Below are positions 20,275 through 59,039 of a DNA stretch of 64,000 nucleotides, one piece after another. The notes below the pieces were generated by a model. That model saw only the letters and a program-made list of their open reading frames with translations. It did no database searches and was not told the DNA's origin. Position numbers and translations under genes: made by a program. Every line of letters starts with the position of its first letter. The stretch's first letter is position 1. The DNA is from Candidatus Latescibacterota bacterium (GTDB lineage Bacteria > Latescibacterota > UBA2968): the NCBI GenBank assembly GCA_965198115.1, contig OZ240241.1, positions 2,848,001 through 2,912,000 of the forward strand, read 5' to 3'.

Positions 20275-21695
20275 GGCTATATCCGGATCTCTCAACGAGA
20301 TGAAGTGGGTGAAGGTGCCGTGGTTCCTGGCATGGGGGCGCGGTTAGCGTGTGCGGAACCTCTTCGGAATCTGCTCAGGGATGTTTATGTCTCCGACGGT
20401 AAGGAAGATCATATCGTTGAATGCGTCGAGTGTGCGGAATCCGCTGGCTCGGTTCTTGACGATTTGGACGATTCGGTTGAGGCCTTCGGCGATGGCGTTG
20501 GTAAGACGCGTGTTCACGAATGCGAGGACGCCGAAGAAGTGCTGTCGCAGGGTCCTGACGAACTTTCGCAGGGGTTCACGTCGACTTCTGAGTGCGGACG
20601 TCGTCCAGCATTTCAGGAAGCGTTCGGCAGCCCAGGGCGCTTTGTATTCCCAGAACTGCTCGAACTCGTCCTTGAGTCTCCAGGCTCTATAGATTCGGTA
20701 GTTCGCCTTCTCCAGTGCTTTGAGTGTCCGAGTATCCCCTCTGGAGCGTGTCGCTGAGTGCCGGTAGAGGAGCCATCGGAGGCCCTTCATGGCTTTGCGC
20801 TCATCCGGGGCAGCTTTACGCCACTGGTCCTTACGGACCTCGTCAACGGCGGCATTGAGAGCCTTGACGATGTGAAAGCGATCGAGGACCAGCTTGGCAT
20901 TCGGACAGTGTTCCTGGATGGCTCCGATGTAAGCTTCGCTCATGTCGCAGCAGGCCCACTCGATCTTGGATCTCTGGTAGGGACTGAGAGCCTCTGTGAA
21001 GAACCGATCGATCGTTTTACGCGCCCTGCCGCGGCCAACCCACACCCACGCAGGAGCGGTCCAGATCGTAAACGAGCGTGGCGTACCTGTGACGCTTGGC
21101 GTAGGAGATCTCGTCGATCCCGATGGTTTTGAGCCCTCGGATACGATGACCTTCACGAAGCCGCGTGATGGATCGGTGAAGGAGATCCGACAGCGTCGAG
21201 GCAGAGATGCGCAGCAACTCGGACGCCGCCTTCTGCGTCATGGTCTGGCAGTAGCGCAGCATGGCATACTCGAAGCGATACGTCACCCGAGAGAACCGCT
21301 CCGCCCACGGAATCTCCTCGACCACACGACCGTGGGTAGGACACCGAATCTCCCGAGGATGGTAGAGAAGCCAGACCCTCCACCCGCACACCGGAATGTC
21401 ACGCCACCGACGCAGATGGGGCATTGTGCGGACGATTTTACCTCGACGGCCGCACTCCGGACAACAACAACCATTCTTATGTGGCTTTACGGCGATGACG
21501 AAGCAGCTTCTCCCCTCAAACCACCAGCTGACAACACGGAACCCCTTGAATCTCAGCAGTTTCGATAGTAATCTGCTCCCGGTCATAGGTCGCACCCCCT
21601 TCGCTTTGATTGTCCTACACACACAACCAAGCGTAGGGAACGATCTATGACCTTGTCATTCTATAGTTTCACCGTTGAGAAACCCGGATAGAGCC
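20275..21695 (-). mobile_element. ISL3-family element copy 2, frameshift at ~21046
   Basis: Inverted near-identical copy of 13177-14596; 8-bp TSD AATGAAAA. Confidence 0.95.
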
Positions 21696-21814
21696 AATGA
21701 AAAAGGGTTACGGCTGTGAGCACGTAACCCCTCTGAATTCTTCTTTAGATAGCCGGATGTTCGGTGACCTCGCAGAGCGTCTTGCATCAGGGAGACGCAC
21801 TCGCCCAGATCGAC

Positions 21815-22327
21815 TCAGCCTTCGGTGCCTCCATCGCCCTGGTCTTGCAACTCACCAGCTTCCAAGATTCTGCCACGTTCCTGATAATTTGAAACGAGCT
21901 CTTCGATCGTGCTGTGGAGCGTGCATCCGGAATGGTCCTCGGAACCGCTCTCCTTCTCGAATGCCACGAATAGTGCTCCGAAATCCGGGCTGGTGATGTC
22001 ATACACCAGGATCGGGTTATACCGGCTGTCACGTATCGCCCTTCTGTAATACTCATCTCTGAACAAACGGAACTCGGCAGGCCTCGGCTCCTCGTCACCC
22101 ATCAGTTCCAAGTATCTTTCGGATTCGATCTTGGAGCGAATGTAGCCAGGAACGAAGAATTCAGGACGAGGAGCGTCGAGAAAATAGAGGGTCTGAACGA
22201 GTCCACCGTCCCCATCGCTACGGGGTCCGAATCCGATGCGCGCCAGCGCAGTCAGTCCGACGTCCGGGTCGATCTCCTTCTCGTGCTGCTCGAAAAACAG
22301 CTCATAGATGTCCGGGGGTTGATTCAT
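21815..22327 (-). CDS. Hypothetical acidic protein downstream of the tRNA array
   Basis: 170-aa ORF; no recognised motif. Confidence 0.55.
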   Translation of the reverse strand: MNQPPDIYELFFEQHEKEIDPDVGLTALARIGFGPRSDGDGGLVQTLYFLDAPRPEFFVPGYIRSKIESERYLELMGDEEPRPAEFRLFRDEYYRRAIRDSRYNPILVYDITSPDFGALFVAFEKESGSEDHSGCTLHSTIEELVSNYQERGRILEAGELQDQGDGGTEG

Positions 22328-22482
22328 TCACGATTCCCTACGCGTCGATGGTCTACTCGTTTGCGCCGCGAAGATAGTCTATCCAAATATGCGGCCGCCG
22401 TCGAGGCCGTCGTAGGTGTTTCGAGCTCGGGGGACGAATTAACCGACAACGCAAAACCCGACAGACAACCCAGGGCTCGCCG

Positions 22483-22525
22483 AAGAAAAGACCAACGGGC
22501 CACACAAATTCTGTGCAGCCCGTTG
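22483..22525 (-). terminator. Intrinsic terminator closing the tRNA array
   Basis: Minus strand CAACGGGC...GCCCGTTG followed by GTCTTTTCTT. Confidence 0.6.
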
Positions 22526-22557
22526 TCATTCCAGCAGCCCAAGACAGAGGGCATGAT

Positions 22558-22641
22558 TGGTGGGGCGCTACGGAATCGAACCGCCTATCCGAAAGGCACG
22601 AGGGTTACAACCTCGCTCTCATCCCACTGAGTAGACGCCCC
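22558..22641 (-). tRNA. tRNA-Tyr(GTA)
   Basis: CGAGG-TTGTAAC-CCTCG, V-arm, CCA; C at position 8. Confidence 0.8.
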
Positions 22642-22677
22642 TATGTTGGGATCGACCCTTGCGGGCCAACCGATGAT

Positions 22678-22766
22678 TGGAGGAGGGCACAGGAGTCGAA
22701 CCCGCACCGTTTCCGATGGCGTCACGGTTTTCAAGACCGTTTCCAGTCCACACTGGGCTACCCTCG
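22678..22766 (-). tRNA. tRNA-Ser(TGA), atypical
   Basis: ACGGT-CTTGAAA-ACCGT, long V-arm, CCA; C1.C72 mismatch and odd D-arm. Confidence 0.75.
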
Positions 22767-22807
22767 ATATGGACGAGCCTGATGACGACATCGTGACTCC
22801 TCTGGTC

Positions 22808-22884
22808 TGGCTCCGGTGGTAGGATTCGAACCTACGACTGACAGTGGTTAACAGCCACCCGCTCTGCCACTGAGCTACACCGGA
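22808..22884 (-). tRNA. tRNA-Asn(GTT)
   Basis: GTGG-CTGTTAA-CCAC, canonical D and T arms, CCA. Confidence 0.9.
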
Positions 22885-22889
22885 ACAGA

Positions 22890-22962
22890 TGGTAGCGGGG
22901 ACGGGAGTCGAACCCGCCAAAGCCGGGATATGAGCCCGGCGTGCGCACCAGCGCTCCCCGCA
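22890..22962 (-). tRNA. Initiator-type tRNA-fMet(CAT) with shortened D-arm
   Basis: CCGGG-CTCATAT-CCCGG (three G-C pairs), T1.T72 mismatch, CCA. Confidence 0.8.
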
Positions 22963-22969
22963 CAAGGTT

Positions 22970-23043
22970 TGGAGCGATCGGAGGGAGTCGAACCCTCATC
23001 ATCAGCTTGGAAGGCTGAGGCCCTGCCGTTAGACGACGATCGC
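22970..23043 (-). tRNA. tRNA-Gly(TCC)
   Basis: TCAGC-CTTCCAA-GCTGA, T73, CCA. Confidence 0.9.
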
Positions 23044-23044
23044 T

Positions 23045-23109
23045 CTGAACCCGACGTTGCGCGTCGCCTCGTTCCTCCTTGTAAGGCCGGGCATTGCGCT
23101 CACTCGGGT
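23045..23109 (-). pseudogene. Degenerate tRNA-Val(TAC) remnant
   Basis: CTTACAAGGAGG anticodon-arm half and ACCCGA/TCGGGT acceptor-like pairing; no intact T-loop or CCA. Confidence 0.4.
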
Positions 23110-23112
23110 AAG

Positions 23113-23189
23113 TGGTAGTCGCCCCGGGATTCGAACCCGGACTGAACGCGCCCTCAACGCGATCCCTCTGCCGGTTGGGGTAGGCGACT
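23113..23189 (-). tRNA. tRNA-Leu(GAG) without long variable arm (77 nt)
   Basis: CGCG-TTGAGGG-CGCG, 5-nt V-loop TCAGT, A73, CCA. Confidence 0.85.
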
Positions 23190-23190
23190 C

Positions 23191-23267
23191 TGGTAGGGGC
23201 GGAGAGATTCGAACTCTCACTTTACACGGTCTGAACGTGCTCCCTCTGCCGATTGGGGTACGCCCCT
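23191..23267 (-). tRNA. tRNA-Leu(CAG) without long variable arm (77 nt)
   Basis: GCACG-TTCAGAC-CGTGT, 5-nt V-loop AAAGT, A73, CCA. Confidence 0.85.
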
Positions 23268-23272
23268 AATGT

Positions 23273-23346
23273 TGGTGCCCGCTGGAGGACTCGAACCCCC
23301 ATTTCGTGGTCCGTAGCCACGCGGTAATCCCTTAGCCTAAACGGGC
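23273..23346 (-). tRNA. tRNA-Arg(ACG)
   Basis: CGTGG-CTACGGA-CCACG, CCA. Confidence 0.85.
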
Positions 23347-23351
23347 AGTAC

Positions 23352-23425
23352 TGGTGTCGCGGGACGGATTCGAACCGCCACTGTCTGGTCTTCAGCCAGA
23401 GGTGCTACCGTTACACCACCACGAC
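23352..23425 (-). tRNA. tRNA-Phe(GAA)
   Basis: TCTGG-CTGAAGA-CCAGA, CCA. Confidence 0.9.
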
Positions 23426-23430
23426 AACAT

Positions 23431-23506
23431 TGGGGTGATCGATGGGATTCGAACCCACGGCGACCCGGTCCACAGCCGGGCGTTCTACCGCTGAACTACG
23501 ATCACC
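23431..23506 (-). tRNA. tRNA-His(GTG)
   Basis: CCCGG-CTGTGGA-CCGGG, G-1:C73, CCA. Confidence 0.9.
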
Positions 23507-23510
23507 ACGA

Positions 23511-23597
23511 TGGGGCCGGTGGCAGGACTTGCACCGGCGTGGGGCTTACGCCCGGCTGCTTACAAGGCAGCTGCTGTCGCTACTGAGCCACACCGGC
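23511..23597 (-). tRNA. tRNA-Thr(TGT) with long variable arm (87 nt)
   Basis: GCTGC-CTTGTAA-GCAGC, V-arm GGGC-GTAA-GCCC, T-loop TGCAAGT, G1-C72 and C2-G71, CCA. Confidence 0.8.
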
Positions 23598-23606
23598 AGT
23601 CTGTTT

Positions 23607-23681
23607 TGGAGCGTCCGAGGGGAATCGAACCCCTGTCTGCGCGATGGCAACGCACCGTCTTGGCCGCTGGACCACGGACGC
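23607..23681 (-). tRNA. tRNA-Gly(GCC)
   Basis: GTGCG-TTGCCAT-CGCGC, CCA. Confidence 0.9.
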
Positions 23682-23689
23682 TGTCTGTC

Positions 23690-23764
23690 TGGCGCCCCCA
23701 CGGGGAGTCGAACCCCGATTTGCTGATCGACAATCAGCTGTCCTGGCCGTTAGACGATGGGAGC
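23690..23764 (-). tRNA. tRNA-Asp(GTC)
   Basis: GCTGA-TTGTCGA-TCAGC, G73, CCA. Confidence 0.9.
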
Positions 23765-23765
23765 G

Positions 23766-23841
23766 TGGTGGACCGGGTAGGCTTCGAACCTACGATCTCC
23801 CGCTTAAGAGGCGGGTGCTGTGCCGACTTAGCTACCGATCC
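23766..23841 (-). tRNA. tRNA-Lys(CTT)
   Basis: CCCGC-CTCTTAA-GCGGG, CCA. Confidence 0.9.
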
Positions 23842-23856
23842 ACGATTTCAAAGAGC

Positions 23857-23931
23857 TGGAGGGCAGGGACGGAATCGAACCGTCGTTGAGCCGGGTTGCA
23901 ACCGGCCGCTTTGCCACTTAGCTACCCGCCC
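23857..23931 (-). tRNA. tRNA-Cys(GCA)
   Basis: GCCGG-TTGCAAC-CCGGC, T73, CCA. Confidence 0.9.
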
Positions 23932-24004
23932 TGGCGCGCCGTCGAGGTGTCGAGCCCCGCACACCGGGTTTTGGAGACCCGATTGGACGCCGGTCCCCGG
24001 CGCG
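23932..24004 (-). tRNA. tRNA-Trp(CCA), degenerate D and T arms
   Basis: CGGGT-CTCCAAA-ACCCG, CGCGCCG/CGGCGCG acceptor-like pairing, CCA; T-loop lacks TTC. Confidence 0.65.
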
Positions 24005-24008
24005 TATC

Positions 24009-24076
24009 TGGTGACCCCGGAGAGTCGAACTCTCAAGGTTCTTAACCTGATGCGTATGCCATTCCGCCACGGGGTC
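24009..24076 (-). pseudogene. Truncated tRNA-Leu-like gene with AAG anticodon (68 nt)
   Basis: Leu-type D-arm GCGGAATGGCATACGC, AGG-TTAAGAA-CCT, V-arm missing, 5-nt T-loop, perfect acceptor stem and ACCA. Confidence 0.65.
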
Positions 24077-24080
24077 GTGT

Positions 24081-24157
24081 TGGTTGGCGCGGTCGGACTT
24101 GAACCGACTGTCTCTCGCTTATAAGACGAGTGCCTTTACCCCTTAGGCTACGCGCCG
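24081..24157 (-). tRNA. tRNA-Ile(TAT)
   Basis: CTCGT-CTTATAA-GCGAG, C4-G69, A73, C1.A72 mismatch, CCA. Confidence 0.85.
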
Positions 24158-24163
24158 ACAAAA

Positions 24164-24238
24164 TGGTGACGACGGAGGGAGTCGAACCCTCGTCTTCTGG
24201 TTGAAAACCAGAGATCCTGACCGTTGAACGACGCCGTC
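24164..24238 (-). tRNA. tRNA-Glu(TTC)
   Basis: TCTGG-TTTTCAA-CCAGA, CCA. Confidence 0.9.
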
Positions 24239-24313
24239 TGGTGGCCCGAGCAGGAATCGAACCTGCCTCGAGCGGTTTAGAAGACCGCTGCCTCTCCAAT
24301 AGGCTATCGGGCC
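24239..24313 (-). tRNA. tRNA-Arg(TCT)
   Basis: GCGGT-CTTCTAA-ACCGC, CCA; abuts tRNA-Glu with no spacer. Confidence 0.9.
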
Positions 24314-24315
24314 GT

Positions 24316-24392
24316 TGGTGCGCCCGACAGGATTCGAACCTGCACAGTTCAGATTAAAAGTCTGATACCCGACCGGATTGGGTGACGGACGC
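24316..24392 (-). tRNA. tRNA-Lys(TTT)
   Basis: TCAGA-CTTTTAA-TCTGA, CCA. Confidence 0.9.
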
Positions 24393-24443
24393 ACGGATTC
24401 CGTGTCTTCTCGTTTTCCTGTGTTTTCGTGGTCTGCGTTTCAT
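24354..24443 (-). other. Candidate 29-aa Lys/Arg-rich mini-ORF overlapping tRNA-Lys(TTT)
   Basis: MKRRPRKHRKTRRHGIRASVTQSGRVSDF; GGA upstream of the ATG; stop codon lies in the anticodon loop. Confidence 0.4.
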
Positions 24444-24457
24444 CGTGCGTTCCGTTT

Positions 24458-24531
24458 TGGCACGGGGCTGAGGAATCGAACCCCAATTCGAAGAGTCAAA
24501 GTCTTCCGTCTTCCCGTTAGACGAGCCCCGT
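24458..24531 (-). tRNA. tRNA-Gln(TTG), first gene of the array
   Basis: GAAGA-CTTTGAC-TCTTC, G73, CCA. Confidence 0.9.
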
Positions 24532-24533
24532 AC

Positions 24534-24569
24534 AAAGAAAAACCCCATCAGATCGTGGTCTGACGGGGC
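24534..24569 (-). terminator. Terminator/attenuator hairpin directly upstream of the tRNA array
   Basis: CCCCGTCAGA-CCACGA-TCTGATGGGG followed by TTTTTCTTT, ending 2 nt before tRNA-Gln. Confidence 0.75.
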
Positions 24570-25238
24570 CTCGGTGATTCTGCTTCTGCGATTGGTTCTA
24601 CGTCACCGTTACCCCGCCAGTCGAGTCTTGTGTGCCATCCAGGGCATACATAAGCGTCCACGCGGATTCAAAGGTCGCGTCGCCGCAATGGACCTGCCCG
24701 GATTTGCGTAGTGACGATATGGGAAACGATGATCTCATCGAAGGTTCTGTCTCTTGTAAAAAGGTTTTCCGCTCCTCACACAACATTAGACACACCCAAC
24801 GTCAAAGCGGTTCCGCAATTCTTCCTCGAATCCAGATATTCCAGATGGTCCCGGCCTTCTCGGCAATCTTTTCTTACAGAACCACCGGGATATGGTCGGT
24901 TGGCTGTCTGTTTGCCGCCTACTTGGATTTATCGGCAAACTTCGAGCCAATCTTATCCAGTTCATCAAATTTTTGGTAACGTGCATCCCGAAGCCCGATC
25001 CTACTTACTGTCTTGACTCGGCATCCTTGACAGTGACAGCCTGGCTCGTTGCGAGCTGGTCTACATAGTCCTTGTATCTGCCCATTCTTACTCCGTGATT
25101 GCAGACGCTTTACCTGAGACGAGGACAGGCGCACCTGTGTTTCGTCGAGTTGACAGGCAAGGATCGGTAGTTTCGATGCCGATGACATCCACTTTCTGTG
25201 CAGTCTGTACAGTCAGGTTAGGGACGATATTGGCCTGA

Positions 25239-25868
25239 ATGTGCTTTCAAGCTGTCAAATGGCTCAAGAAACACCCTCTCGCAACGGTGACGCCCACTGG
25301 ATCGCTCCCCTCGCTCACAACGGCCGTGACTGGCGAGAACGTCAGGGGCAGCTGGTGGAGTCACCCGAAAGCGCACGACATCTACGCCGCCTGCCAGGCC
25401 CTGGATCGAAGCCCTTTCGTTCTCACCACCAAGTTGGTCAACCCCAAGGTCACCTTCATTCATCGTCGGATCTGGGGAGAGCTCTTGCGTGTGACCCTCG
25501 ATCGCGAGTGGGAAAGGGCCACGACCGTCGGCCTCGATCCCGCCACGAGAAGGATGCTCAGAAAAGTCAAGACTCTGGGTTGCGTTCGCTGGAACGACCT
25601 GACCGAGAGATCGCGAACAGACAGAAAGGTACTGCTCCAACGTCGACAAGCAGTCATCGAGAGGGGACTCGTTATCACGAGCCAAATGCACACCGAATCT
25701 GGCCGCCATACCGCTTTACTACAGTCCTGGCAGAACTTCTCCGAAGAGACAGCATCGCGACCCCATACAACCCTCGCCCTCTCCGAGGCGCTCGAACGGA
25801 TGAGAACCTGGGCGAAAGGTTGTGCGTTGACGATCGATGCTTTTTCCCGTGGGGGTGAAGCAGAGTAG
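25239..25868 (+). CDS. Hypothetical protein
   Basis: 209-aa ORF; RGSWWSHPKAHDIY...KLVNPKVTFIHRRIW. Confidence 0.65.
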   Translation: MCFQAVKWLKKHPLATVTPTGSLPSLTTAVTGENVRGSWWSHPKAHDIYAACQALDRSPFVLTTKLVNPKVTFIHRRIWGELLRVTLDREWERATTVGLDPATRRMLRKVKTLGCVRWNDLTERSRTDRKVLLQRRQAVIERGLVITSQMHTESGRHTALLQSWQNFSEETASRPHTTLALSEALERMRTWAKGCALTIDAFSRGGEAE

Positions 25869-25958
25869 TCATCGAGGCCGACACTCGTGCGGGCCAGCCC
25901 TCTGCCAATGGATCCTAGTACCTGACGCCGAACGGCCATTGAATTTTGACATCGACCT

Positions 25959-27889
25959 ATGAACAGACCGTTTGATAGCTGGAAGCCCATCACCGAAGAC
26001 GACGATGCCATCGCGTCAGCCCTCGAATCGGCCAACATCCCCACGTTGATGATGGCACTCGTCCACATCACCGGCGATGCAAGCATCATCCGAGGCGACA
26101 TCCGACCCGATTACTCGGTCCTCTACGACACGACGCTCGGCCTCACGAAAGATCAGAAGGCGGAGATCAGGGCGATCGCACTCGAAGTTCTCAAAGCGTA
26201 CCGAGACGCAGGATGCCCCTTGCCGGCGAAACTCGCGATCGAGCAGATTCGGCCGATGCTCGGATTCCTCACGGCGCGTGACCTCACGGACGACTACGTC
26301 GAGTTTCTGATGGGAGACCTTTCCCTGGGAGGCGAGGATCCTTATCAGCAGCCGGGTCTTCATCTTCTTTAAAAGAAAAACGTCAGGCATTTCAGGTTCT
26401 GATCATTGGCGCCGGTATGTCGGGCATCCTCGCAGCCCACAGGCTCAAAGAAGCGGGTATCGGGTTCGAGATCGTCGAGAAGAACAGCGATGTGGGCGGA
26501 ACCTGGTTGGAAAACACCTATCCCGGCTGTCGGGTCGATTCGCCGAATCACAGCTACTCCTACTCCTTCCTGCCGAATGACTGGCCTCAATACTACTCCC
26601 CGCGGAAAACCCTACTCGAATATTTCCAACAAGCCGCATCGGGCGCCGACATCCGTGATCACATTCGGTTCAGCACGGAAGTCGAGTCGGTCATCTTTGA
26701 CGAGCACAGCCGGACCTGGACGGTCACGGTCAAGAAGGCGGATGGGACCGAGGACAGACTCGTCGCGAACGCCGTCATCGGTGCCGTCGGCCAGCTCAAC
26801 AGACCCCGGCTCCCGGACATCGCACGACGCGAGCGTTTTGAGGGTCCCTCGTTCCACACCGCCCGATGGGAGCATCACCACGACCTGACGGGAAAACGGA
26901 TCGGCGTCATCGGAACGGGCGCGAGTGCGTTCCAGACCGTGCCCGAAATCGCGAAACAGGCCACGGACGTCTTCGTTTTCCAACGTACGCCGCCCTGGAT
27001 CTCCATTCGGCCCGAATACCACGACGATGTTCCCGCGGGCAAGCATTGGTTGCTCAACCACGTCCCTTACTACGCAAAGTGGTTCCGGTTTTATATGTTC
27101 TGGCGTTCGTCCGAGGGTCTTCTGCCGTGGGTGATGAAGGATGATGCGTGGGAGGATCAGTCGCGCTCGGTTGGGCCGGAGAACGATGAACTGCGCAGGG
27201 TCTTGACGGAGAGAATGGCCTCAATCATCGAGGACGACGAGGATCTGTTGAAGAAATCCATTCCCGACTTTCCACCCGCCGGGAAGCGAATGCTCGTCGA
27301 CAACGGCACCTATCTGAGAGCCCTCAAGCGAGAAAACGTCCACCTGATCACCGATCCGATTGCAGAGATTACCGAAACCGGCGTATCAGCCGAATCGGGC
27401 GCACACTACGATGCCGACGTGCTCATCTACGCGACAGGCTTTCACCCCAGTCGGATTCTCTGGCCGATGGAAATTCGGGGGCTCGGGGGTCTCGACCTCC
27501 AGACGCATTGGGACGGGGACCCTCACGCCTACAAGGGTGTCAGCATCCCCGGATTCCCCAATTTCTTCTGTATGTACGGGCCGAACACCAACATCGTCGT
27601 GAACGGGAGCATCATCTTCTTCTCAGAGTGCGAAATGCGTTACATCCTCGGATGCATCAAGCTCCTGATCGAGAACGAGCACTCGGCGATGGACTGTCGC
27701 CAGGATGTTCACGACGCCTACAACGAATGGATCGACCAGGGCAACGCGAACACGGCGTGGGGCGCACCTCACGTCAGGAGTTGGTACAAGAATGAAAGGG
27801 GCCGTGTCACACAGAACTGGCCCTACTCGATGATGGCGTTCTGGTCCCAGTCGAAGGCGCCCGATCCATCGGACTACATCTTTACCTGA
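25959..27889 (+). pseudogene. Baeyer-Villiger/flavin monooxygenase with N-terminal extension (HAPMO-like), frameshift at ~26370
   Basis: IIGAGMSG, GGTWLENTYPG, FHTARW fingerprint, GTGASA; split into ORFs 25959..26372 and 26417..27889. Confidence 0.85.
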
Positions 27890-29086: not shown

Positions 29087-29716
29087 TCACCGCCACTTTG
29101 TCTTCAACGCCTGACCCTTCTTCGCGCTCTGCACGGCCAGGTCCAGGATGTGAATCGGACGCCGAGCCCATTCGGGCGTGATCACGAGCGAATGTCCTTT
29201 CACCAGATGCGCAGCCACGTTCCGGTAGAACTTCGGCCATTGGCTCGCCATATTGTCGCCCTTCGTGCTGACCCGTGTGTCTCCCTTCTGCTGGATCATC
29301 TCATACATTCGCCCATCGAGCACGTAACTTCCCTTCGTCCCCGAAATCTCCAGTTGCCCCGCTTTCGGGTTCGTCTCGATCGACGAAACGGTCAGCGTCA
29401 ACCACGTACCCCCCTTGAACCGAACCACGGTGGATGCGACATCTTCGTTCGTATCCTCCTTCCACCGCGTCTTCCGCGCCCAATAGCCCCGCCTCGCGTA
29501 GCCGGTGACCTCGACCATCTCGTCGTCGATGATCTGCAGCGCATACTCCAGCAGATGCACACCCCAGTCATATAGAATGCCTCCGGAGATCGAGTTACTG
29601 GTCCGCCACCAATCCCCCGGTTGGCCGTATCCTCCAATGTGGGCTTCCACGCGATACACATCACCGATCGCCTTTTCACGCCGAATGTGCCTCAACGCTT
29701 CCAGTACACAGCCGTC
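29087..29716 (-). pseudogene. 3' half of a Gfo/Idh/MocA oxidoreductase (5' half at 47894-48311)
   Basis: DGCVLEALRH...SGGILYDWGVHLL; begins with the 13-bp duplication GACGGCTGTGTAC. Confidence 0.9.
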
Positions 29717-46290: not shown

Positions 46291-47831
46291 GAGTCAAGCT
46301 CCTCCAGATCACCGACCTGCATCTTTCGGATCGAGCCGACACGCCAGCAGCCGAGGCCCTCCGATGGGCGATCGATACGGCGAACACGCTGGTACCCGAT
46401 CTGGTCGCATTCACTGGAGATATGACGACCCACGGCACGGCCGAATCCGCCACCCGATTTCTCGAGCGGGCGGAGGGATTGACCGTTCCGTGGGTCTTCA
46501 CGCCCGGCAACGCGGAGTTGCGGTCGGACGGGGCGATGTCCGTCCTGGCGGAATGTGTGCTCCGCCAATCGATCGACGTCGGGGGCATCCGGTTCCTGTT
46601 GCCCGACACGTCGACGGGGCGGTTCACTCCCAAGGATCGCGCCTGGATGGATGCGGTCGATCGATCGGAGGATTGTCCGATCGTCCTCCTGACGCACTAT
46701 CCCACAGACACCTTGGACGTGGATTCACGCGAGTGGGTTACGGCGTGGTTGGCCGGTCGGCCTGTGGAGCTTTACCTGGCGGGTCACCGCCATTTCACTC
46801 GGTCGCGGTCGGTGGGTGGGTGCCAGGAGGTGATCACGCGTGGTCTGGATCCGGACAAGGCGTTCGGCGGTCCGCCAGGTATCAGTGTGTTCGAGCGAGG
46901 CGACGGTCGCTGGATCGAGGAGGCGATCGCGTGGCCCCACGGAAACGATCTTCTCCCGGCGGATACCGACCATTCGCCCGTTGGATGGTCGATTCACGGC
47001 GATCCGACCGACGCCGTCGTCGAAACGTATGACTTCGGGCTCAACGTGCTCGAGCTTCGGCCACGCGAGCCGGACTATGATTTCGACACAACGCTGTCAG
47101 AGCTGTCCCGTCTTCGCGAAGACCGACCGCTGTATCTGTCGTGGCACTTGCCCAGTCTGAACTGGGATGATGAAACCCACGCGGTACGCGGAGGGGACGA
47201 CATAAGCCGTCAGGTGGAACACGGACGACAGTGTGGCGTCGACGCATTCACGATCCACGTGCCCCAGGCTCGGGCGGACCGGATGTTCGACGGCGATGAA
47301 CCATCGGGTGTGTGGACGGCCTTCCTGGAGTACTACGATCGGCTGTTTCGCGACGCTGTGACGGACGGGATCCGCTTGTCGATCGAGAACGTACACAATG
47401 CGCCGGGAACCCCGCGAGATCGAGCGGAACGGAAGTTCGCGACTGAAATCGGAGAATACCTGGCCTGGATCGATTCGGTTCGATCCGAGATCGGATCGAT
47501 TGCGTGCGTCGGCGCCCACTTCGATGTCGGCCACGCCCGTAACAATGGCGATTTCGGAAATATCCAACCTCTGGGAGACTGGTATTCGCGCGTCGGATCG
47601 CTGGTCACGGGCTATCACATCCATCAGGTGCGGCCGCACGAGGATACGGGCAAGCTGACGAACCATCGCGACATCATCTCTCTGTATGACCGAACGATCA
47701 GTTACGCCGGGTTCCTCTACGCGTGGTCGAACCGACTCATCAACCGGGCACCCCTGTTCGTCGAGGTTCGTGACCCGGAGGAGCGACGCAGGACGACTCG
47801 GTTGTTGGAGCGACACTTTGCCGAAGGGTAG
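46287..47831 (+). CDS. Metallophosphoesterase fused to xylose-isomerase-like TIM barrel
   Basis: ITDLH, TGD, GNAE, THYP, AGHRH; then LSIEN, HFDVGH, YHIH. Confidence 0.8.
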   Translation: MRVKLLQITDLHLSDRADTPAAEALRWAIDTANTLVPDLVAFTGDMTTHGTAESATRFLERAEGLTVPWVFTPGNAELRSDGAMSVLAECVLRQSIDVGGIRFLLPDTSTGRFTPKDRAWMDAVDRSEDCPIVLLTHYPTDTLDVDSREWVTAWLAGRPVELYLAGHRHFTRSRSVGGCQEVITRGLDPDKAFGGPPGISVFERGDGRWIEEAIAWPHGNDLLPADTDHSPVGWSIHGDPTDAVVETYDFGLNVLELRPREPDYDFDTTLSELSRLREDRPLYLSWHLPSLNWDDETHAVRGGDDISRQVEHGRQCGVDAFTIHVPQARADRMFDGDEPSGVWTAFLEYYDRLFRDAVTDGIRLSIENVHNAPGTPRDRAERKFATEIGEYLAWIDSVRSEIGSIACVGAHFDVGHARNNGDFGNIQPLGDWYSRVGSLVTGYHIHQVRPHEDTGKLTNHRDIISLYDRTISYAGFLYAWSNRLINRAPLFVEVRDPEERRRTTRLLERHFAEG

Positions 47832-47893
47832 TGTACCCAGTTGCCGTGTTCGGTCGTGGTCGTATCAAACCAAGGTGCAATGAGGGATCGCAG

Positions 47894-48311
47894 ATGAGCG
47901 CGTTCAACCGGGCGAAGGACATCAAGGTGGGTGTGATCGGCTACGGCGGGGCATTCAACATGGGGCGTACGCACCTGACGGATATGCAAGCAGCGGGGAT
48001 GACGCCGGTGGCGGTCGCCGAGCTCGATGCGGAACGTTTGGAAGTCGCGACGGAGGAGTTTCCCGGCATTCAACCTTACCGTTCGGTGACCCGGATGCTC
48101 AACACGTCCGATGTGAACCTGGTCGTGTTGAGCACGCCGCACAACACGCACTCGAGGCTAGCGCTTCAGTGTCTGCGCGCTGGACGACACGTGATCAGCG
48201 AGAAGCCGCTGGCCATCAGAACGAGTGACTGCGACACGATGATTCGGGAGGCGAAAAAGCGAAGGTTGATGTTGACGACCTACCACAACCGGCACTGGGA
48301 CGGCTGTGTAC
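47894..48311 (+). pseudogene. 5' half of a Gfo/Idh/MocA oxidoreductase
   Basis: VGVIGYGG, HVISEKP, YHNRHWDGCV, then IS. Confidence 0.9.
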
Positions 48312-49693
48312 TGTCCAGCGCCCCGGGGTTTTCTTGGACACTCCGTTGACCTACAGTAGGTCGAAAAGGAGGGTCCACCATGAACAAGGCTACCAGGGGA
48401 TCGGTTGGGGCGGAGCGAGCGAGAGCGAGCGGAGGCCCAGCCGATCCAAGCGCGACTTCGCAGGGTCGTTTCTCCGTGAAGAAGAAGGCCGAAGCCGTAT
48501 TACGTGTGATGCGTGGCGAGAGCCTCGACAGCGTCTCTCGCGATCTGGGAGTAACGGCAGCTAAATTGAGCGAGTGGCGCGATCAGTTCCACTCTGGCGC
48601 CCAGGCCGCACTACGCTCTCGTCCGAGCGACGAGCGTGACGAGAGGGTCAAGGACCTCCAGGCGAAGATTGGCGAGCTCACGATGGACAACGAGCTGCTG
48701 CAACAAAGAATCGATCGTCTGGAAGCCCGCCGCCCTTTGGCGCATCGGAGGTCGCGGAAATGAGTGAGGTCCTTTCGCCCTCCACGGGGAGACGCTACAG
48801 CATTAAACGCGTGTGCAAAGTGTTGCAGATACCCCGTTCCACGGTGCACAGCCAGCTTCGTCGTTCATCCGTAACCGATCTTCGGCAACCCCGGAAGCGA
48901 GGCCCGGTCGGAGCGGGTACCGATGAGGAATTGGTCTCCCTCATTCAGCAGGAGATCGACGCGTCACCCTTCCACGGCGAAGGATACCGCAAGATCTGGG
49001 CCAGGCTTCGCTTTCACGGTATGCGGACGTCAAAGGATCGGGTCCGCCGGTTGATGCGTGAAAACGGGCTCCAGGCGCGTCCAGGACGGCGTCGCGAACG
49101 ACGAGCCCACGATGGCACGATTACGACCGAGAAGCCCGATCAGATGTGGGGCACCGACCTGACTGTGACGCCCACGGTCGACGAGGGCAGAGCCTCCGTG
49201 TTTATCGCGATCGACCACTGCACGTGCGAGTGTGTGGGCATTCACGCCTCCAAGACGGCCAACCGCTTTGAGGCTCTCGAGCCGATCCGACAGGGCATCC
49301 GTGAACACTTCGGGGGCTTCGAAGAAAACATCGCCGAAGGACTGGAGCTCCGACACGATCACGGGTCACAATACGTCTCTGACGACTTCCAGAACGAGAT
49401 CGCATTCCTCGGCGTCCAAACATCGCCGAGTTTCGTGCGTGAGCCAGAAGGCAACGGATGCGCCGAGCGGTTCATCCGTACCCTCAAAGAAAACCTCCTG
49501 TGGGTTAGACACTTCAGTACCATCGAAGACCTGCGCCTCGCACTCCTTGAGTTTCGGGACAGATACAACCACAGGTGGATCATCGAACGTCACGGCTACA
49601 AGACGCCCGAACAGGCTAGAAACGCACTCACGGCAACTCGAAAGGCCGCCTGAATACACTCACCCGAGTGTCCAGACAACCGCGGGCTTTACA
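48312..49693 (+). mobile_element. Two-ORF IS3/IS481-like element copy 2 (orfA 48380..48763, orfB 48760..49653)
   Basis: Ends TGTCCAGC...GCTTTACA; ATGA overlap of the ORFs. Confidence 0.9.
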
Positions 49694-50595: not shown

Positions 50596-53103
50596 CTATA
50601 TCGAACGCCCGAACGATTGAAGTGCTTCCTGGTCGTATTCAAGAGTAAGCTCGTTCAGTTCTTTTGCCGCCGCTTCGTCCGAATCAGCGACCTCGTATCT
50701 CATCGAGGCGTAGCCTTTCATTCGCTTTTGGAACATTCTCCCCAGCATCGGAACCTTGAGATCCACGTAGTCATAAATGCGATCATCCGCCTTCCCTCGA
50801 TAGGCGCGATGGAGCCTCCCGGCGTATTGGACGAGCGTACCTCTCCAGGCAATCGGCATCGCGAGGAAGAGCGTGTCCAGGCGGGGATCATCGAAGCCCT
50901 CACCGGTGAAACGTCCAGTCGAAATCACGAGCCGCTCTTCGTCGTCGGACAAATCGGCGAGTCGATCAAGAGCTTCGCGCCTCTTTTGGGTACCCATCCC
51001 GCCTTGTAGTACGACCAGGTTCGGGGTCATCCCCTCGAGTCGATCCGCGAGGAATTGCAGATGATCTCTTCTCTCAGTCAGAACCAGAGGAGATCGACCT
51101 TCCTCCAAAGCTCGGATGACGTCGTCCAGGATCATCTCATTCCGTTTCGGGTCCAGGGCAAGGCGCTGATAGATGTGTTGTATTCCCGTGCGAGTCCCAT
51201 CTACATCAATTGAGAAGGACGTCTCACGGACAAAGAGCCGATGTCGAAAAAAACCCCGTACAGCTTGATCCTTGCGATCGAAGGAATATCGGATCGGTCC
51301 AAGATAGTAGTGGAGAATCGGGTGGTGGCCGTCGCGCCGGATTGGAGTCGCCGTTAAACCCGTTAAATGCTTTGCCCTGACCTCTTTCAGAACTTTTTCA
51401 AAAGAGACAGCTGGAATATGATGACACTCGTCAACGATCACGTTGCCATACCTTCCAGCAAACTCAGACAGATCCTTCCTGCGCGCCAGACTTTGGATCA
51501 TCGCCACATCCACCAGCCCTGTCTGTTTTCGCCTCCCACCGCCAATCTGACCAATTTCCTTCACATCAAGGCCCAGAAAAACCGCAAGCTGTTCGCGCCA
51601 TTGATCCAGAAGCTGCGTTCGATGTACGAGAACTAACGTGGCTCGTTTCCGTTCCGCGATCAGGTGGATACCGACGACGGTCTTGCCCATCCCGGGCACT
51701 GCAACGAAGACTCCGATGTCAGATCCCAATATCACATCGGCAGCTCTTTTCTGAGCGGCGGTCAACTCTCCTTGAAAGGCAACATCGATCCGCTCACCTG
51801 CTGTCTGTCGATCTTCGATCCTAAGCGTAATGTCGTGAGTCGCAAGCAGCTCCTCAAGATCGAATAAACAGCCTCGGGGCAGCGCCACGGCTTCGGACAG
51901 ATCTTCAGCACAGGTGATGACTCGAGGAGTCAACGCGGTAGACAGTCGCAGAGATTGCCTTTTGTAGAACTCTGGGTTCTGGAAAGCCGCCAACCGTTTG
52001 ATCTGATTGATCAGGGAAGAGGGCAAACCCGACTTTTCTACAAGAACACCCCGATCCAGATCGGCCCGAACACTCTTGGGCAAAGGATCCTCAATCGAGA
52101 CGATCTGTGGCCCTTCTTGAGATCGCGCGGTCTTATCCCCGGGTTCATCGGACAAAGACGGGATCTGTACGCCGATAATTCGGCCTTCTTGGGATGCCAT
52201 CTCGGCCAACGCCTCAACCCGTGAACGTGGCAAACGGTCCAAGGAGGCGAGATAGCCCCATTGATCCTCGTAGGGCGCCCATCTGTTGTCGACAAACACT
52301 GTGTTCCCAGCGCGCCTCGCCTCATACTGAAGCGGCAGGGCGATCAGGTTCCCGAATCCGCCTCGCGGCATCGTATCCTGGCTGGGAAACAGACGGTCGT
52401 AGGAAGCCATCGATATCTGGTGTCTTTGCGTCATCGTCTGCGTGATCAAATAGCAGCCCATTTTTCTCGCTGACGCTGCGGATACACACTCCTCAAAGAA
52501 GAACCAGACGTGTGCCCCCTTCCCCGATCGAGATCGTTCAACCGCGGGAGTCATCCCAAGCTTGATAGAAGTCTCCAGAAAGGAGGAAACATCGTCTGCC
52601 CAGGCCTTGCCATCGAAATCAATCGCCAAAATAGCGCAGGTGTCGTCTTCCAGCAGCGGATAGACTCCAACGACGTGACGCCCCTGCAGATGGTCCTTGA
52701 TAACTTGGTCGGTCACGGGAAGGAATGCTTGATTCGGACACTCTCCGCACCTTACCCGAGGTTTATCGCAGACACCGTGCACCCATTCGTTACCGCACGC
52801 TGGGGCGTACCCAATCGATTGTTTCCGCTGGTTTCGCCAGAATTTGGGGAAGACATCCATCCGACCTCGAAAGAGCGAGCGAAAGAGGGTAATCTTCTCT
52901 TGGTTTGATCGGGGCGATGCTACTTTGTGGGGGAGGGCTTCGACAGTTGGGCCAGACAGGGAAAGCGAGGTCAACTTATCCTGTAGTTCTGCCAGACGTC
53001 CGACGAGTAAGCGTTTCTCGGCATCGATGTCCGCGAGACGGGCTTTTTCGTCACGGATCTTCTGGATCAGAGTGGCCTTGTCAAGGGAAGTCAACGGACA
53101 CAC
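50596..53103 (-). CDS. AEP primase-like (TOTE-type) domain fused to SF2 DEAD/DEAH helicase
   Basis: FRSLFRGRMDVF, AIDFD, ERSRSGKGAHVW, GNLIALPL; Walker A GMGKT, DECHH, TAT, GEGFD, QYAGRLHR. Confidence 0.85.
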   Translation of the reverse strand: MCPLTSLDKATLIQKIRDEKARLADIDAEKRLLVGRLAELQDKLTSLSLSGPTVEALPHKVASPRSNQEKITLFRSLFRGRMDVFPKFWRNQRKQSIGYAPACGNEWVHGVCDKPRVRCGECPNQAFLPVTDQVIKDHLQGRHVVGVYPLLEDDTCAILAIDFDGKAWADDVSSFLETSIKLGMTPAVERSRSGKGAHVWFFFEECVSAASARKMGCYLITQTMTQRHQISMASYDRLFPSQDTMPRGGFGNLIALPLQYEARRAGNTVFVDNRWAPYEDQWGYLASLDRLPRSRVEALAEMASQEGRIIGVQIPSLSDEPGDKTARSQEGPQIVSIEDPLPKSVRADLDRGVLVEKSGLPSSLINQIKRLAAFQNPEFYKRQSLRLSTALTPRVITCAEDLSEAVALPRGCLFDLEELLATHDITLRIEDRQTAGERIDVAFQGELTAAQKRAADVILGSDIGVFVAVPGMGKTVVGIHLIAERKRATLVLVHRTQLLDQWREQLAVFLGLDVKEIGQIGGGRRKQTGLVDVAMIQSLARRKDLSEFAGRYGNVIVDECHHIPAVSFEKVLKEVRAKHLTGLTATPIRRDGHHPILHYYLGPIRYSFDRKDQAVRGFFRHRLFVRETSFSIDVDGTRTGIQHIYQRLALDPKRNEMILDDVIRALEEGRSPLVLTERRDHLQFLADRLEGMTPNLVVLQGGMGTQKRREALDRLADLSDDEERLVISTGRFTGEGFDDPRLDTLFLAMPIAWRGTLVQYAGRLHRAYRGKADDRIYDYVDLKVPMLGRMFQKRMKGYASMRYEVADSDEAAAKELNELTLEYDQEALQSFGRSI

Positions 53104-53342
53104 CTATTCGGCAGGTTTCTCGCGGCGCTCCCTGACCTCTCGAAGCACATCCACGATCTCATCTCGAGTCAGATCCAACCTCACGCCCTCGACATCCAGC
53201 GGCGAGCTCGAGGGATTCGCCGTTCGCAGGATTGAACTCCTGCCCGTCACGTCTTCTGATCCGGACCTCTCCTTCCCGACGAGCCCGATCGAGCAGGGAT
53301 GCCAGGGTTTTGCCTTGCTTCTGAGTATGTGACAACAGTCAT
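53104..53342 (-). pseudogene. Phd/YefM-type antitoxin with two 1-nt insertions
   Basis: MTVVTYSEARQN|LASLLDRARREGEVRIRRRDGQEF|ILR...SPLDVEGVRLDLTRDEIV. Confidence 0.7.
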
Positions 53343-53546
53343 CGGTCAGCCTTCAAATGTGCCAGGCAATGAGCTCGCATCTGTGGCCAGTGCGTGTCCT
53401 GCCGTCGTCTAGAGGCAAAAATCCAGCGCCAGGACGGCCTGAGAAGGGTCTTTGACCGTTTCACCCGGTAAGCGACAGGTTTCAGTCGATGATCTCCTAG
53501 CGAGTTTGGACTTCAGGTCCGTTCATTGGTTGAGTTGCCTTCGATG

Positions 53547-54095
53547 TCAATCAGGGGGAGACCACCGCAAGACTCCCATCTTCCCAGGGTGTGCAGCTTG
53601 CGCCTTAGTATGCCACTCAAAACCGACTTCGACCGGCACCTTCAATTCGCGAGCAATCCAGAGGGTCGTCTCCCACGCCCTATGAGAATCGAGGCCCTGT
53701 ATGGACAGATCCAACTTCGGAATGTATTTGAATCCTCGAGAACTTTCGTTGCCCTCCAAAAGGTTGGCCCTTGACACCTGCTGCATCTTCTCGACTCCCA
53801 GGACCTCCGCCGCCTTGATGTGGGCAAATTTCACGAGTTCATTCCACTTGGGAGGCACCGCATCATTCCCGAACTTTGCCCGCAAGACCCTTGTATGGCG
53901 AAGATTCTCTGGGTGGTCCGGGTCCAACTCAATCCCGCTCCGCTGATTCCCAGTCGTCCTGGGCTGACCGTTCGCGTTCTGGTGATAAAAGTCCAACAGG
54001 CGGTCAATAACGGATGCCTCCGTATCAACGAAAGGCTCCGCAATCTTCTTCAATCGACCATACGTTTCATCCGAAATCTGAATCGTCTGTGTCAT
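53547..54095 (-). CDS. Hypothetical protein with N-terminal ribbon-helix-helix-like segment
   Basis: MTQTIQISDETYGRLKKIAEPFVDTEASVIDRLL; AT-rich inverted repeat upstream (ATGTAG...CTACAT, ~54125-54156). Confidence 0.65.
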   Translation of the reverse strand: MTQTIQISDETYGRLKKIAEPFVDTEASVIDRLLDFYHQNANGQPRTTGNQRSGIELDPDHPENLRHTRVLRAKFGNDAVPPKWNELVKFAHIKAAEVLGVEKMQQVSRANLLEGNESSRGFKYIPKLDLSIQGLDSHRAWETTLWIARELKVPVEVGFEWHTKAQAAHPGKMGVLRWSPPD

Positions 54096-54169
54096 CGCCG
54101 GCCCCCAGAATACTGATATTAATAATGTAGATTGATATATAAATATCATACTACATGAGATATGTGTAG

Positions 54170-54508
54170 ATGTCAACCCCTCAGACCCATTCCTATCGCA
54201 AACTCTTGCAAGTCGTCCAAGTTACCCTGACCGAAGGCCGGCTTCGTGCCGAACAGGCCGTCGAACGCGAGCGGTTGACGACGTATCACGAGGTGGGGCA
54301 CCAAATTCATCAACATCTGACAGAATCAGGCGAAGGCGGAACCTACGGCGAGCGGCTCTTTCTAAGCCTGGCTGGTGACCTCGAAATCGCCGAGCAACTC
54401 CTTCGTGATGCGGTAAACGTGTATCGTTGGCATCCTAATTTCCCACGCGCGTGGGAAATTAGGATGGACCCATTACCGAATCCTCCTTCGTCTTCCATCC
54501 AAAGATGA
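54170..54508 (+). pseudogene. DUF1016/YhcG N-terminal-like fragment
   Basis: RAEQAVERERLTTYHEVG...TYGERLFLSLAGDL. Confidence 0.55.
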
Positions 54509-54589
54509 TCGCGATCGACTCGAAAAGGAGGCTGCCGCGGGCGGATGGACAAACGGCCCTTTCCCCTCGCATTATCTTGCTTCTGTCCA

Positions 54590-54793
54590 GTTGAGGCGTA
54601 CCCTAGCCTGGCGTCAGGGACGGGGCGCTGAGGCGTCAGAATAGAGTTCTCATTTGGATTGATGGACACATCCCGTCCAGGGTTATAGAGTTCTTCCTGA
54701 CAGATTGGATTCAGCAGGGACGCCTTGCCCGATCAGCGCATCGGCTATGTCCGGGTGAGCAGCTTCGACCAGAACCCGGAACGCCAAGTTGAG
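54590..54793 (+). mobile_element. Transposon res-site-like region plus 5' fragment of a resolvase
   Basis: QRIGYVRVSSFDQNPERQ (serine resolvase catalytic motif) at 54734-54787; upstream GCGTCAG repeats. Confidence 0.7.
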
Positions 54794-54861
54794 TTGTGTC
54801 CAGGTTCGAGAAGGACGCCCATCCAGGGAGGCTGGAGACGTTGAAGAAGGAGACGATCGCA

Positions 54862-55467
54862 ATGATCGGCAGCCGCGCCTTTACTGCATTGATGGTGGGA
54901 TGGCTATTGACGAACGCCGTTCAGGCAGAGCCGCGGCCCGGCGACATCGCCGGCGTATATCCGTCGGCAGGGCCGGGTGACCGTACGTTGTACGCGATAG
55001 CGCGGGTGAACCCGGGAGCCGGTCCCGCGACGACGAGGTCCGGGGAGTCGATCATTCAGGTCTTCGTCACCGGCAGGGACCGCCGCGTCGAAGGGACTGC
55101 CAGTCACTACTTTGCGGTGCCGCGGGATGTATCCACGGGCGTGCGACTCGACGCGCTCCACTCGGCACCGGGTCCCAATCACTTTATCCAAATTGACGGC
55201 CGGGAGTACGCGCTCCAACGGATTATGGTCGGGGTACGGGAGGGCCACCTGCGTCTTGAAGGGGCGGTTCTGGTACGCACCGGCTTCTTACCAATGATAA
55301 TGCGTGGACGGATCGAGCTTCGGCTGGACTCGGCCCTGAACCCCGGCGGGACCGCAGACGAGATGACGGCCAAGGCGTTGGAAGACACGACACGGGCCGA
55401 CAAAATCAGTCGTGAAGGCTATGAGAAGGCGCTACGAGACTACCAAACAAGAAGAGCGCGAGAGTGA
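54862..55467 (+). CDS. Secreted hypothetical protein
   Basis: RBS AAGGAG; signal-peptide-like MIGSRAFTALMVGWLLTNAVQA. Confidence 0.6.
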   Translation: MIGSRAFTALMVGWLLTNAVQAEPRPGDIAGVYPSAGPGDRTLYAIARVNPGAGPATTRSGESIIQVFVTGRDRRVEGTASHYFAVPRDVSTGVRLDALHSAPGPNHFIQIDGREYALQRIMVGVREGHLRLEGAVLVRTGFLPMIMRGRIELRLDSALNPGGTADEMTAKALEDTTRADKISREGYEKALRDYQTRRARE

Positions 55468-55493
55468 ATGGGCCTTAGCGTACGATTTTTCCC

Positions 55494-55874
55494 GTTTCGT
55501 GAGGTGACCCCACCTCAACCCCCATAACAAAGCGCCCGGACGGTGCCGTGATGCTGCGCATGCCCTTCGAGTTTCCCGACGGAGATCGCTTCCCTATCCA
55601 CGTTTCGGAACTCGGGTCCGGTGGATTGCGCCTTTCCGACCAGGGCCATACGCTCATGCACATCAGTTACGATCACGACATTGATTCGTTCCTGGAAGGC
55701 ACCCGTGGCCAGCTCATCGAGCGCACCATGGCCGAGACCGGCCTTGAATGGGACGGAGACGCATTCTGCGTCGATACTCCAATCGATAGGCTTCCTGATG
55801 CGATCTTTCGTTTAGGTCAAGTGTTGACCAGGGTTTACGACCTGATTGCCCTTCCAAGTGTTGTTTTGTGTTAA
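55494..55874 (+). pseudogene. DUF1828-like fragment
   Basis: PFEFPDGDRFPI...LRLSDQGHTLMH. Confidence 0.55.
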
Positions 55875-57424: not shown

Positions 57425-57463
57425 CCGGAAAGACATGCAACGCGACATCCACAGACCGAAATC

Positions 57464-57724: not shown

Positions 57725-57799
57725 CCGAATTTAAGTCAGCTTGGATTACTATAGGTCGATGGGACGGCAACACTCAACTGGCTGCCGCAAAAGCCAGCG

Positions 57800-59029: not shown

Positions 59030-59039
59030 CTTGAAATCC

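Follow-up and report, generated by a model that had tools for sequence, protein, structure and literature searches.

The DNA analysed here is a stretch of 64,000 nucleotides (nt) from a Candidatus Latescibacterota bacterium (contig OZ240241.1, positions 2,848,001 to 2,912,000), hereafter the window, whose numbering applies to all coordinates given without a prefix. Between 22558 and 24531, its minus strand carries a tRNA array of about 2 kb, composed of 22 CCA-ending genes and the remnant of a Val gene. Directly upstream lie a short open reading frame (ORF), called the leader below, and an intrinsic terminator abutting the first tRNA. This layout suggests that transcription of the array is probably gated by a leader attenuator sensing the speed of the ribosome. 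The features are listed in the order of transcription; G052 is a relative with a similar array, and ARAGORN marks the entries credited to that program.

24598..24738, minus strand: leader ORF, 46 codons, 19 amino-acid types (no Asn)
24611..24622, minus strand: predicted antiterminator strand, leader codons 39-43, complementary to the 5' arm of the terminator
24533..24572, minus strand: leader intrinsic terminator, a 14-pair hairpin and U tract, ending 2 nt before tRNA-Gln
24458..24531, minus strand: tRNA-Gln(UUG), first gene of the array (ARAGORN)
24354..24443, minus strand: Lys/Arg-rich mini-ORF, 29 codons, from the Gln-Lys spacer into tRNA-Lys(UUU), with its stop in the anticodon loop; same frame in G052
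24316..24392, minus strand: tRNA-Lys(UUU) (ARAGORN)
24081..24313, minus strand: tRNA-Arg(UCU), Glu(UUC) and Ile(UAU), the latter with a C1.A72 mismatch (ARAGORN)
24009..24076, minus strand: Leu* pseudogene, at the position of Leu(UAA) in G052; no variable loop, T loop 2 nt short
23932..24003, minus strand: tRNA-Trp(CCA), reduced D arm, 79% to the Trp gene of G052
23607..23931, minus strand: tRNA-Cys(GCA), Lys(CUU), Asp(GUC) and Gly(GCC) (ARAGORN)
23511..23597, minus strand: tRNA-Thr(UGU), 87 nt, long variable arm; G052 has one too (ARAGORN)
23273..23506, minus strand: tRNA-His(GUG, G-1 encoded), Phe(GAA) and Arg(ACG) (ARAGORN)
23113..23267, minus strand: tRNA-Leu(CAG) and Leu(GAG), short variable loop, 77 nt each
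23044..23109, minus strand: Val(UAC) remnant, no CCA
22808..23043, minus strand: tRNA-Gly(UCC), initiator-type Met(CAU) and Asn(GUU)
22678..22766, minus strand: tRNA-Ser(UGA), drifting, with a C1.C72 mismatch and U73
22558..22641, minus strand: tRNA-Tyr(GUA), last gene of the array, 88% to the Tyr gene of G052 (ARAGORN)
22483..22525, minus strand: operon-end terminator, a 15-pair hairpin and U-rich tail

The stop of the leader ORF lies 29 nt before the 5' arm of the terminator; an upstream in-frame ATG at 24786 would lengthen the leader to 62 codons. Since the U tract ends 2 nt before tRNA-Gln and leaves no space for a promoter, transcription presumably has to traverse the terminator. The original prediction had described terminator hairpins at both ends of the array, and both are present (22493-22525 and 24539-24572). 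Its view of the upstream one as a mere boundary has to be given up: this hairpin appears to be a leader terminator with an antiterminator borne by the ORF. At -20.2 to -20.6 kcal/mol, the predicted antiterminator duplex equals the terminator in strength (ratio 1.1). In silico, the two structures are mutually exclusive, and a ribosome near the stop codon masks the antiterminator. When the nascent transcript was folded, the antiterminator had a probability of about 1 with the modelled ribosome at or before codon 37 (43 in G052), and of about 0 later. According to this prediction, a ribosome at codon 38 or later would cover the antiterminator strand, the terminator would form and the tRNAs would stay silent. 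If the ribosome were held up at any of codons 1-37, the antiterminator would remain free, and RNA polymerase would read into the array. Because these 37 codons cover 19 amino acids, read-through would be expected upon shortage or cleavage of almost any tRNA, or in the presence of an elongation inhibitor. The predicted switch would thus supply a concrete mechanism for conditional expression of the array. The leader carries no control-codon run for one amino acid but near-complete amino-acid coverage instead, and its start region is lightly structured.

Compared with 101 ordinary gene/terminator pairs of this genome, the duplex is equalled or beaten by three pairs here and by six in the case of G052. 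Among 29,065 short ATG-initiated ORFs of the genome, 1,346 contain at least 19 amino-acid types, and six of these are followed by a terminator 15-45 nt downstream. Of these six, only the array leader has a duplex exceeding -15 kcal/mol in strength, the runner-up reaching -12.5, in a screen whose thresholds were chosen after the array locus had been seen. The 19 amino-acid types in the first 37 codons are more than expected from gene windows (P = 0.015) or composition-matched random ORFs (P = 0.023). In G052, the leader contains all 20 types (P = 0.020 and 0.030 against the same two references) and 41 distinct codons in 51 (P = 0.00015 and 0.0035).

The leader of G052 is a 51-codon ORF, whose stop is found 28 nt before a near-identical terminator. 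The two leader peptides share 42% identity, a score reached by 13 of 5000 shuffles. In both, the codons near a C-terminal Gly-Gly pair with the 5' arm of the terminator, and the switch point is situated nine codons before the stop. This layout has been kept while the tRNAs of G052 are mostly only 65-80% alike to those of the array here. A profile search of 1.84 billion proteins returned three matches. One of them, P0003 (57 residues, E = 8.7e-5; the source names a Nitrospinaceae metagenome-assembled genome), aligns along the whole leader and keeps the C-terminal Gly-Gly that encodes the antiterminator. P0001 is a protein of 935 residues with five matched stretches, and P0002 was rejected as a repeat protein. 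A word search yielded no further homologues, and an alignment-based search returned P0003 only; none was found in viral contigs, plasmids or phages. A weak match within the phylum, inside a 215-residue frame, was also discarded.

A terminator close to the first tRNA is found at other arrays as well. Among comparison loci picked solely on the array-type Asp tRNA, a terminator lies at most 45 nt from the first tRNA in 5 of 18 arrays of at least five genes, in 2 of 35 small clusters and in none of 50 single genes. Three of those five arrays possess an upstream ORF with a duplex of -10 kcal/mol or stronger.

Several observations weigh against the attenuator. Over all 46 codons, the amino-acid diversity of the leader is not significant (P = 0.074 and 0.092), and its codon diversity equals that of composition-matched random ORFs (P = 0.44). 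Shine-Dalgarno pairing at the leader start is weak, surpassing no more than 29% of gene starts, and a sigma-70-like promoter was not detected at the array locus. An upstream hairpin is scored by 4 of the 48 tRNA units of this genome, the array included. The conservation of the leader may be conservation at the DNA level, because only two loci are available as DNA and these share ancestry, P0003 being known as a protein only. In G052, an IS200-like element separates the leader terminator from the first tRNA (L026:8790-9440); its transposase, presumably of the IS200 type, has many copies in the present genome. The remnant of the array in a third genome, G001, has no leader. At viral loci, upstream terminators are not enriched before arrays (2 of 31, against 1 of 37 single genes), with the restriction that they may not include true array starts.

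The terminator-before-tRNA layout was seen at five metagenome loci with unrelated arrays (L138, L170, L128, L158 and L114). The ORF of L170 is 49 codons long, uses all 20 amino acids and has a duplex of -27 kcal/mol. At L138, the array consists of Glu, Asp and Arg tRNAs alone, and the 24-codon ORF ahead of it is rich in these three amino acids. In this genome, an odd tRNA-like gene at C1:2425266-2425341 (plus strand; called Gln-UUG, without a variable loop) lies 15 nt past a terminator-like hairpin; a transposase-like ORF, presumably IS1595-like, is located at a distance of about 550 nt.

The composition of the array was confirmed. ARAGORN called 20 tRNAs, all on the minus strand from 22558 to 24531, of which 16 pass the Rfam tRNA cut-off. 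Trp(CCA) was detected by this program only once the threshold was lowered; at 80%, the genome is swamped by false tRNA calls. Together with Leu*, these calls bear out the 22 genes of the original prediction, their order and their encoded CCA ends. Its short spacers, often of 0-8 nt, are also real: 17 of 22 do not exceed 8 nt, and the remaining five measure 65, 15, 9, 41 and 36 nt. Leu* has kept its acceptor and D arms. The best match of the Val remnant is Val(UAC) at the same position in G052 (59%). Leu(CAG) is structurally unlike its housekeeping copy, as had been noticed: like Leu(GAG), it has a short variable loop, and it measures 77 nt against 87 nt, at 52% identity. The long variable arm of Thr(UGU) had been overlooked. 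Met(CAU) is of the initiator type, with a U1.U72 mismatch and an anticodon stem closed by three G-C pairs. The reduced D arm of Trp(CCA) is, judging from its counterpart in G052, that of a conserved type and not simple decay. In each of two short-read runs, a contig of 8,076 nt spans 21669-26500 with zero differences; both runs stem from one sample, possibly the source of the window's own assembly.

The long spacers beside Ser (22642-22677 and 22767-22807) are self-complementary, the second folding at -12.6 kcal/mol; they may be processing signals or leftovers of lost genes. Ile(UAU), at 24081-24157 on the minus strand, has its C1.A72 mismatch in common with initiator tRNAs. It may be the one anticodon that the array adds, and AUA may be read by it without lysidine.

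The genome, a single contig of 8.43 Mb, has 74 ARAGORN tRNA calls, a few of them spurious. The 54 calls outside the array form 47 units, and the host tRNA genes are otherwise dispersed. Canonical copies exist elsewhere for 19 of the 20 called array anticodons and for Trp, hence the array is not the sole source of these isoacceptors, as a back-up role demands. The exception is Ile(UAU), whose sole other gene is odd, with an alanine-type acceptor. This gene (C1:5955046-5955121, minus strand) combines the anticodon UAU (Ile) with an acceptor stem matching host tRNA-Ala (G3.U70); a hairpin precedes it and a transposase-like ORF follows directly downstream. It could be a missense or element-borne tRNA.

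The array genes share 49-88% identity with the best host isotype and 61-92% with the G052 array, which is the nearer of the two for 16 of 20 genes (three lower, one tie). Among 60 relatives, related blocks occur only in G052 (from the same taxonomic order; 32 calls, one flagged as a pseudogene) and in G001 (three genes). Across the phylum, the full array is present in 2 of 168 genomes, this one included, and a remnant in one more; only 52 of the 168 are of high quality and many are incomplete, which makes absence of the array soft. The comparison of anticodon order with relatives, proposed earlier, revealed a correspondence with G052 nearly gene for gene, apart from Tyr, which has moved. Compared with G052, this array lacks a block of six genes, Ile(GAU)-Pro-Gln-Glu-Ala-Thr, as well as Arg(CCG) and two Ser genes; furthermore, the Leu and Val genes are broken and Ser is drifting. 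The lack of Ala, Pro and Val tRNAs is a result of block deletion and decay and not of design, since these genes are intact in G052. In G001, which belongs to the same genus, what remains are three genes with the same oxidoreductase gene as neighbour, among them a Gly tRNA with 99% identity; therefore, the array predates the split of the two species. The G001 orthologue of the short-arm Leu(CAG) (L027:3155-3231) reads AAG, an anticodon rare in bacteria. A horizontally acquired back-up set had been proposed: its supernumerary nature, its patchy distribution and the closeness of 16 of 20 genes to G052 support this, while the remnant in G001 shows that the acquisition is not recent. On the evidence of the sequence, the array is a supernumerary, partly decayed member of the tRNA arrays known as L-arrays.

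Other explanations than a working attenuator have to be considered. The losses listed above (the six-gene block, Arg(CCG), two Ser genes, the broken Leu* and Val, the drifting Ser) would suit a silenced relic, in which the switch once worked, the terminator is now effectively constitutive and the tRNAs are never usefully made. The three genes without a leader in G001, the weak Shine-Dalgarno sequence and the lack of a clear promoter point in the same direction. That 20 genes still fold as tRNAs with CCA, that the leader ORF is still open and that the antiterminator still matches the terminator in strength argue against decay of the switch, and such a relic is considered unlikely. Read-through might also be set by a trans-acting protein or RNA antiterminator, the ORF being incidental to a conserved RNA structure. 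A weak Shine-Dalgarno sequence would agree with this, as would the long internal hairpin that the G052 leader also forms. This explanation is nevertheless quite improbable: the open frames of the two genomes are alike in length and in how far from the terminator they end, the third homologue was called as a protein, and the Rfam scan of the window gave tRNA matches only, with no T-box or riboswitch family.

Even less credit is given to a repressor-controlled promoter like the one in Anabaena, with two hairpins that only insulate the array, despite the short-arm Leu tRNAs common to both arrays and the presence of RtcB in the genome. An insulating terminator is expected upstream of the promoter, yet here it abuts the first tRNA, and in Anabaena, unlike here, the 350 nt ahead of the first called tRNA contain no terminator. 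Moreover, no tandem repeat was found near the start of the leader, where the promoter was not located, and the RtcB gene is 3.7 Mb away and has no such leader. A housekeeping tRNA cluster, finally, can practically be dismissed. The near-complete amino-acid coverage and the lack of an ordinary Ile(UAU) copy elsewhere would speak for it, but it is refuted by the dispersed housekeeping set with its canonical copies of 19 of 20 anticodons and Trp, and the full array is missing from 166 of 168 phylum genomes (many incomplete).

Beside the leader attenuator, which is the preferred reading, a second and less certain sensor is possible. A mini-ORF opens in the 65-nt Gln-Lys spacer with the pattern M-K-R-R-x-R-K-x-R-K and enters tRNA-Lys(UUU) at codon 18. 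The same pattern is found in G052 in 24 codons, the length differences of 9 and 6 nt both being frame-keeping. The frame has been kept there even though the tRNA-Lys that it enters is degenerate and counts as a pseudogene, with another, intact Lys(UUU) gene coming next. The mini-ORF uses AAA for each of its six Lys codons, against 35% in the genome as a whole, and AAA and AGA are the codons read by the two genes that come after it. Shuffling of the spacers gave an equally basic in-frame ORF in 3 and 0 of 20,000 cases. A ribosome running through the mini-ORF would keep the 5' half of pre-tRNA-Lys(UUU) unfolded, while one stalled on its AAA, AGA, AGG or CGA codons would leave tRNA-Lys(UUU) free to fold and be processed. 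Other findings count against a role of the mini-ORF. In a set of 178 other array spacers, no comparable ORF leads into a Lys gene; a single spacer holds an ORF whose first ten residues include five basic ones, and this ORF does not enter Lys. The MAFFT placement of the 9-nt gap removes apparent synonymous Arg swaps. The Shine-Dalgarno sequence is weak (the start is stronger than 37% of gene starts), and no terminator lies behind the mini-ORF, which makes its output uncertain. The chances that the mini-ORF is functional are about even. The combined model, a back-up operon under two transcript-borne translation sensors (an all-amino-acid attenuator and ribosome-controlled maturation of tRNA-Lys), is tentative and somewhat doubtful.

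The window is rich in insertion sequences (IS). On one side, the array is bordered by an ISL3 element and a 170-residue ORF of no clear family; on the other, by an AlkZ-related protein, a flavin monooxygenase and PhyH dioxygenases. The 170-residue ORF (21815-22327, minus strand), located just past the end terminator, has no Pfam family and a weak atlas likeness of 0.80 to SMI1/KNR4. In agreement with the original prediction, no rRNA gene is adjacent, the only 16S gene of the genome lying about 157 kb away, and Pfam identified no phage structural gene among the 46 ORFs of the window. The same Pfam search revealed no integrase or HNH gene next to the array; the nearest integrase is 33 kb off, beside a second Val(UAC). 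The remnant of an integrative element occupies 50596-59324, with a tyrosine integrase, a helix-turn-helix gene, a TOTE primase-helicase and this variant Val(UAC), which matches the housekeeping locus C1:7290888 with 96% identity over 124 nt. In G001, a GFO/IDH/MocA oxidoreductase gene is intact; in the window, it is broken into two parts, at 29087-29716 (minus strand) and 47831-48349 (plus strand). An IS-mediated inversion of about 18 kb is suggested (29087-49653), as the two halves adjoin two inverted IS3 copies.

A plasmid or phage origin of the array was considered and rejected: no record among 72,556 plasmids and 50,697 phages covers more than 9% of it. The family-specific Tyr and Trp patterns had no viral match. 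The Asp pattern matched one viral locus, a 31-tRNA array in a different order, and the short-arm Leu pattern 54 viral loci, none of them syntenic. For the Lys-Arg tandem pattern, four viral and six genome loci were obtained, of which only G052 is relevant, and the eight viral loci with the Lys pattern all lack the mini-ORF. A metagenome scan with the Asp pattern gave no full syntenic array in 120 of about 260 stretches, 80 of them with flanks. At seven viral loci (L035, L036, L045, L049, L071, L075 and L076), the tRNA-Ile(UAU) calls measure 90-93 nt and have a long variable arm; short-arm Leu tRNAs lie near them.

L-arrays occur in many phyla, and their switch is known only for cyanobacteria (TrcR). 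If the attenuator is real, a cis-acting leader of about 210 nt would travel with the array, which would arrive silent and could induce itself in whatever host, without calling on a host regulator. This would explain how silent tRNA arrays are switched on outside cyanobacteria, and arrays could be screened for a terminator directly adjoining their first tRNA. Translation of the mini-ORF, if it occurs, would tie the decoding of Lys and Arg codons directly to the maturation of the matching tRNA. Whether cryptic tRNA arrays are used becomes a question that reporters can test.

With the L-arrays described in PMC8421152 (available in part, as are the other sources cited here), the array shares the long, non-periodic, co-oriented and close-packed run, the redundant isodecoders and the patchy distribution. 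A further mark of L-arrays is silence in normal growth with induction by translation stress; the available part leaves open their integration into host regulation outside cyanobacteria, and the supplements list arrays by species and may include Latescibacterota. The trn operon of Anabaena sp. PCC 7120 has short-arm Leu tRNAs and an unusual Asp anticodon loop in common with the array here, but differs in gene order, with tRNA identities of 47-72%. In contrast to the cyanobacterial operon, the present array is chromosomal and has no adjacent HNH endonuclease or rtcB. Control of the trn operon is exerted at the promoter, through promoter repeats (PMC8421152), which are tandem 9-nt repressor repeats over the -10 box, and the TrcR repressor (PMC10272220), whereas for the array here it is predicted at elongation. 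The terms 'leader' and 'attenuat-' are absent from the available main text of both papers, as are the phrases 'tRNA genes' and 'tRNA operon' from the available part of an attenuator survey (PMC2965389). In the literature search, which left most subscription journals outside its coverage, no account of leader-peptide attenuation of tRNA genes was found. It gave nothing useful on short-arm Leu or long-arm Thr tRNAs, and nothing on tRNA arrays in Latescibacterota. For the mini-ORF, the nearest known systems are the antibiotic-sensing leader peptides with an Arg/Lys-X-Arg/Lys motif (PMC8298421, PMC12583479): three such motifs are found in its first ten codons in both genomes, and by analogy these basic triplets would fit macrolide arrest motifs. 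The mini-ORF differs from those peptides in overlapping a tRNA gene and in having no terminator or downstream ribosome-binding site to control.

The attenuators of amino-acid operons (trpL, hisL and the multivalent ilv and thr leaders) respond to a ribosome stalled on the leader ORF by transcriptional read-through. The array leader shares with them the short ORF, the antiterminator overlapping this ORF, the terminator downstream and the logic by which stalling leads to read-through. It differs in the 19-20 amino-acid types that it covers and in its output, tRNA genes instead of biosynthetic enzymes. As it has no control-codon run, it would be a variant of these attenuators and not a member of the trp/his type.

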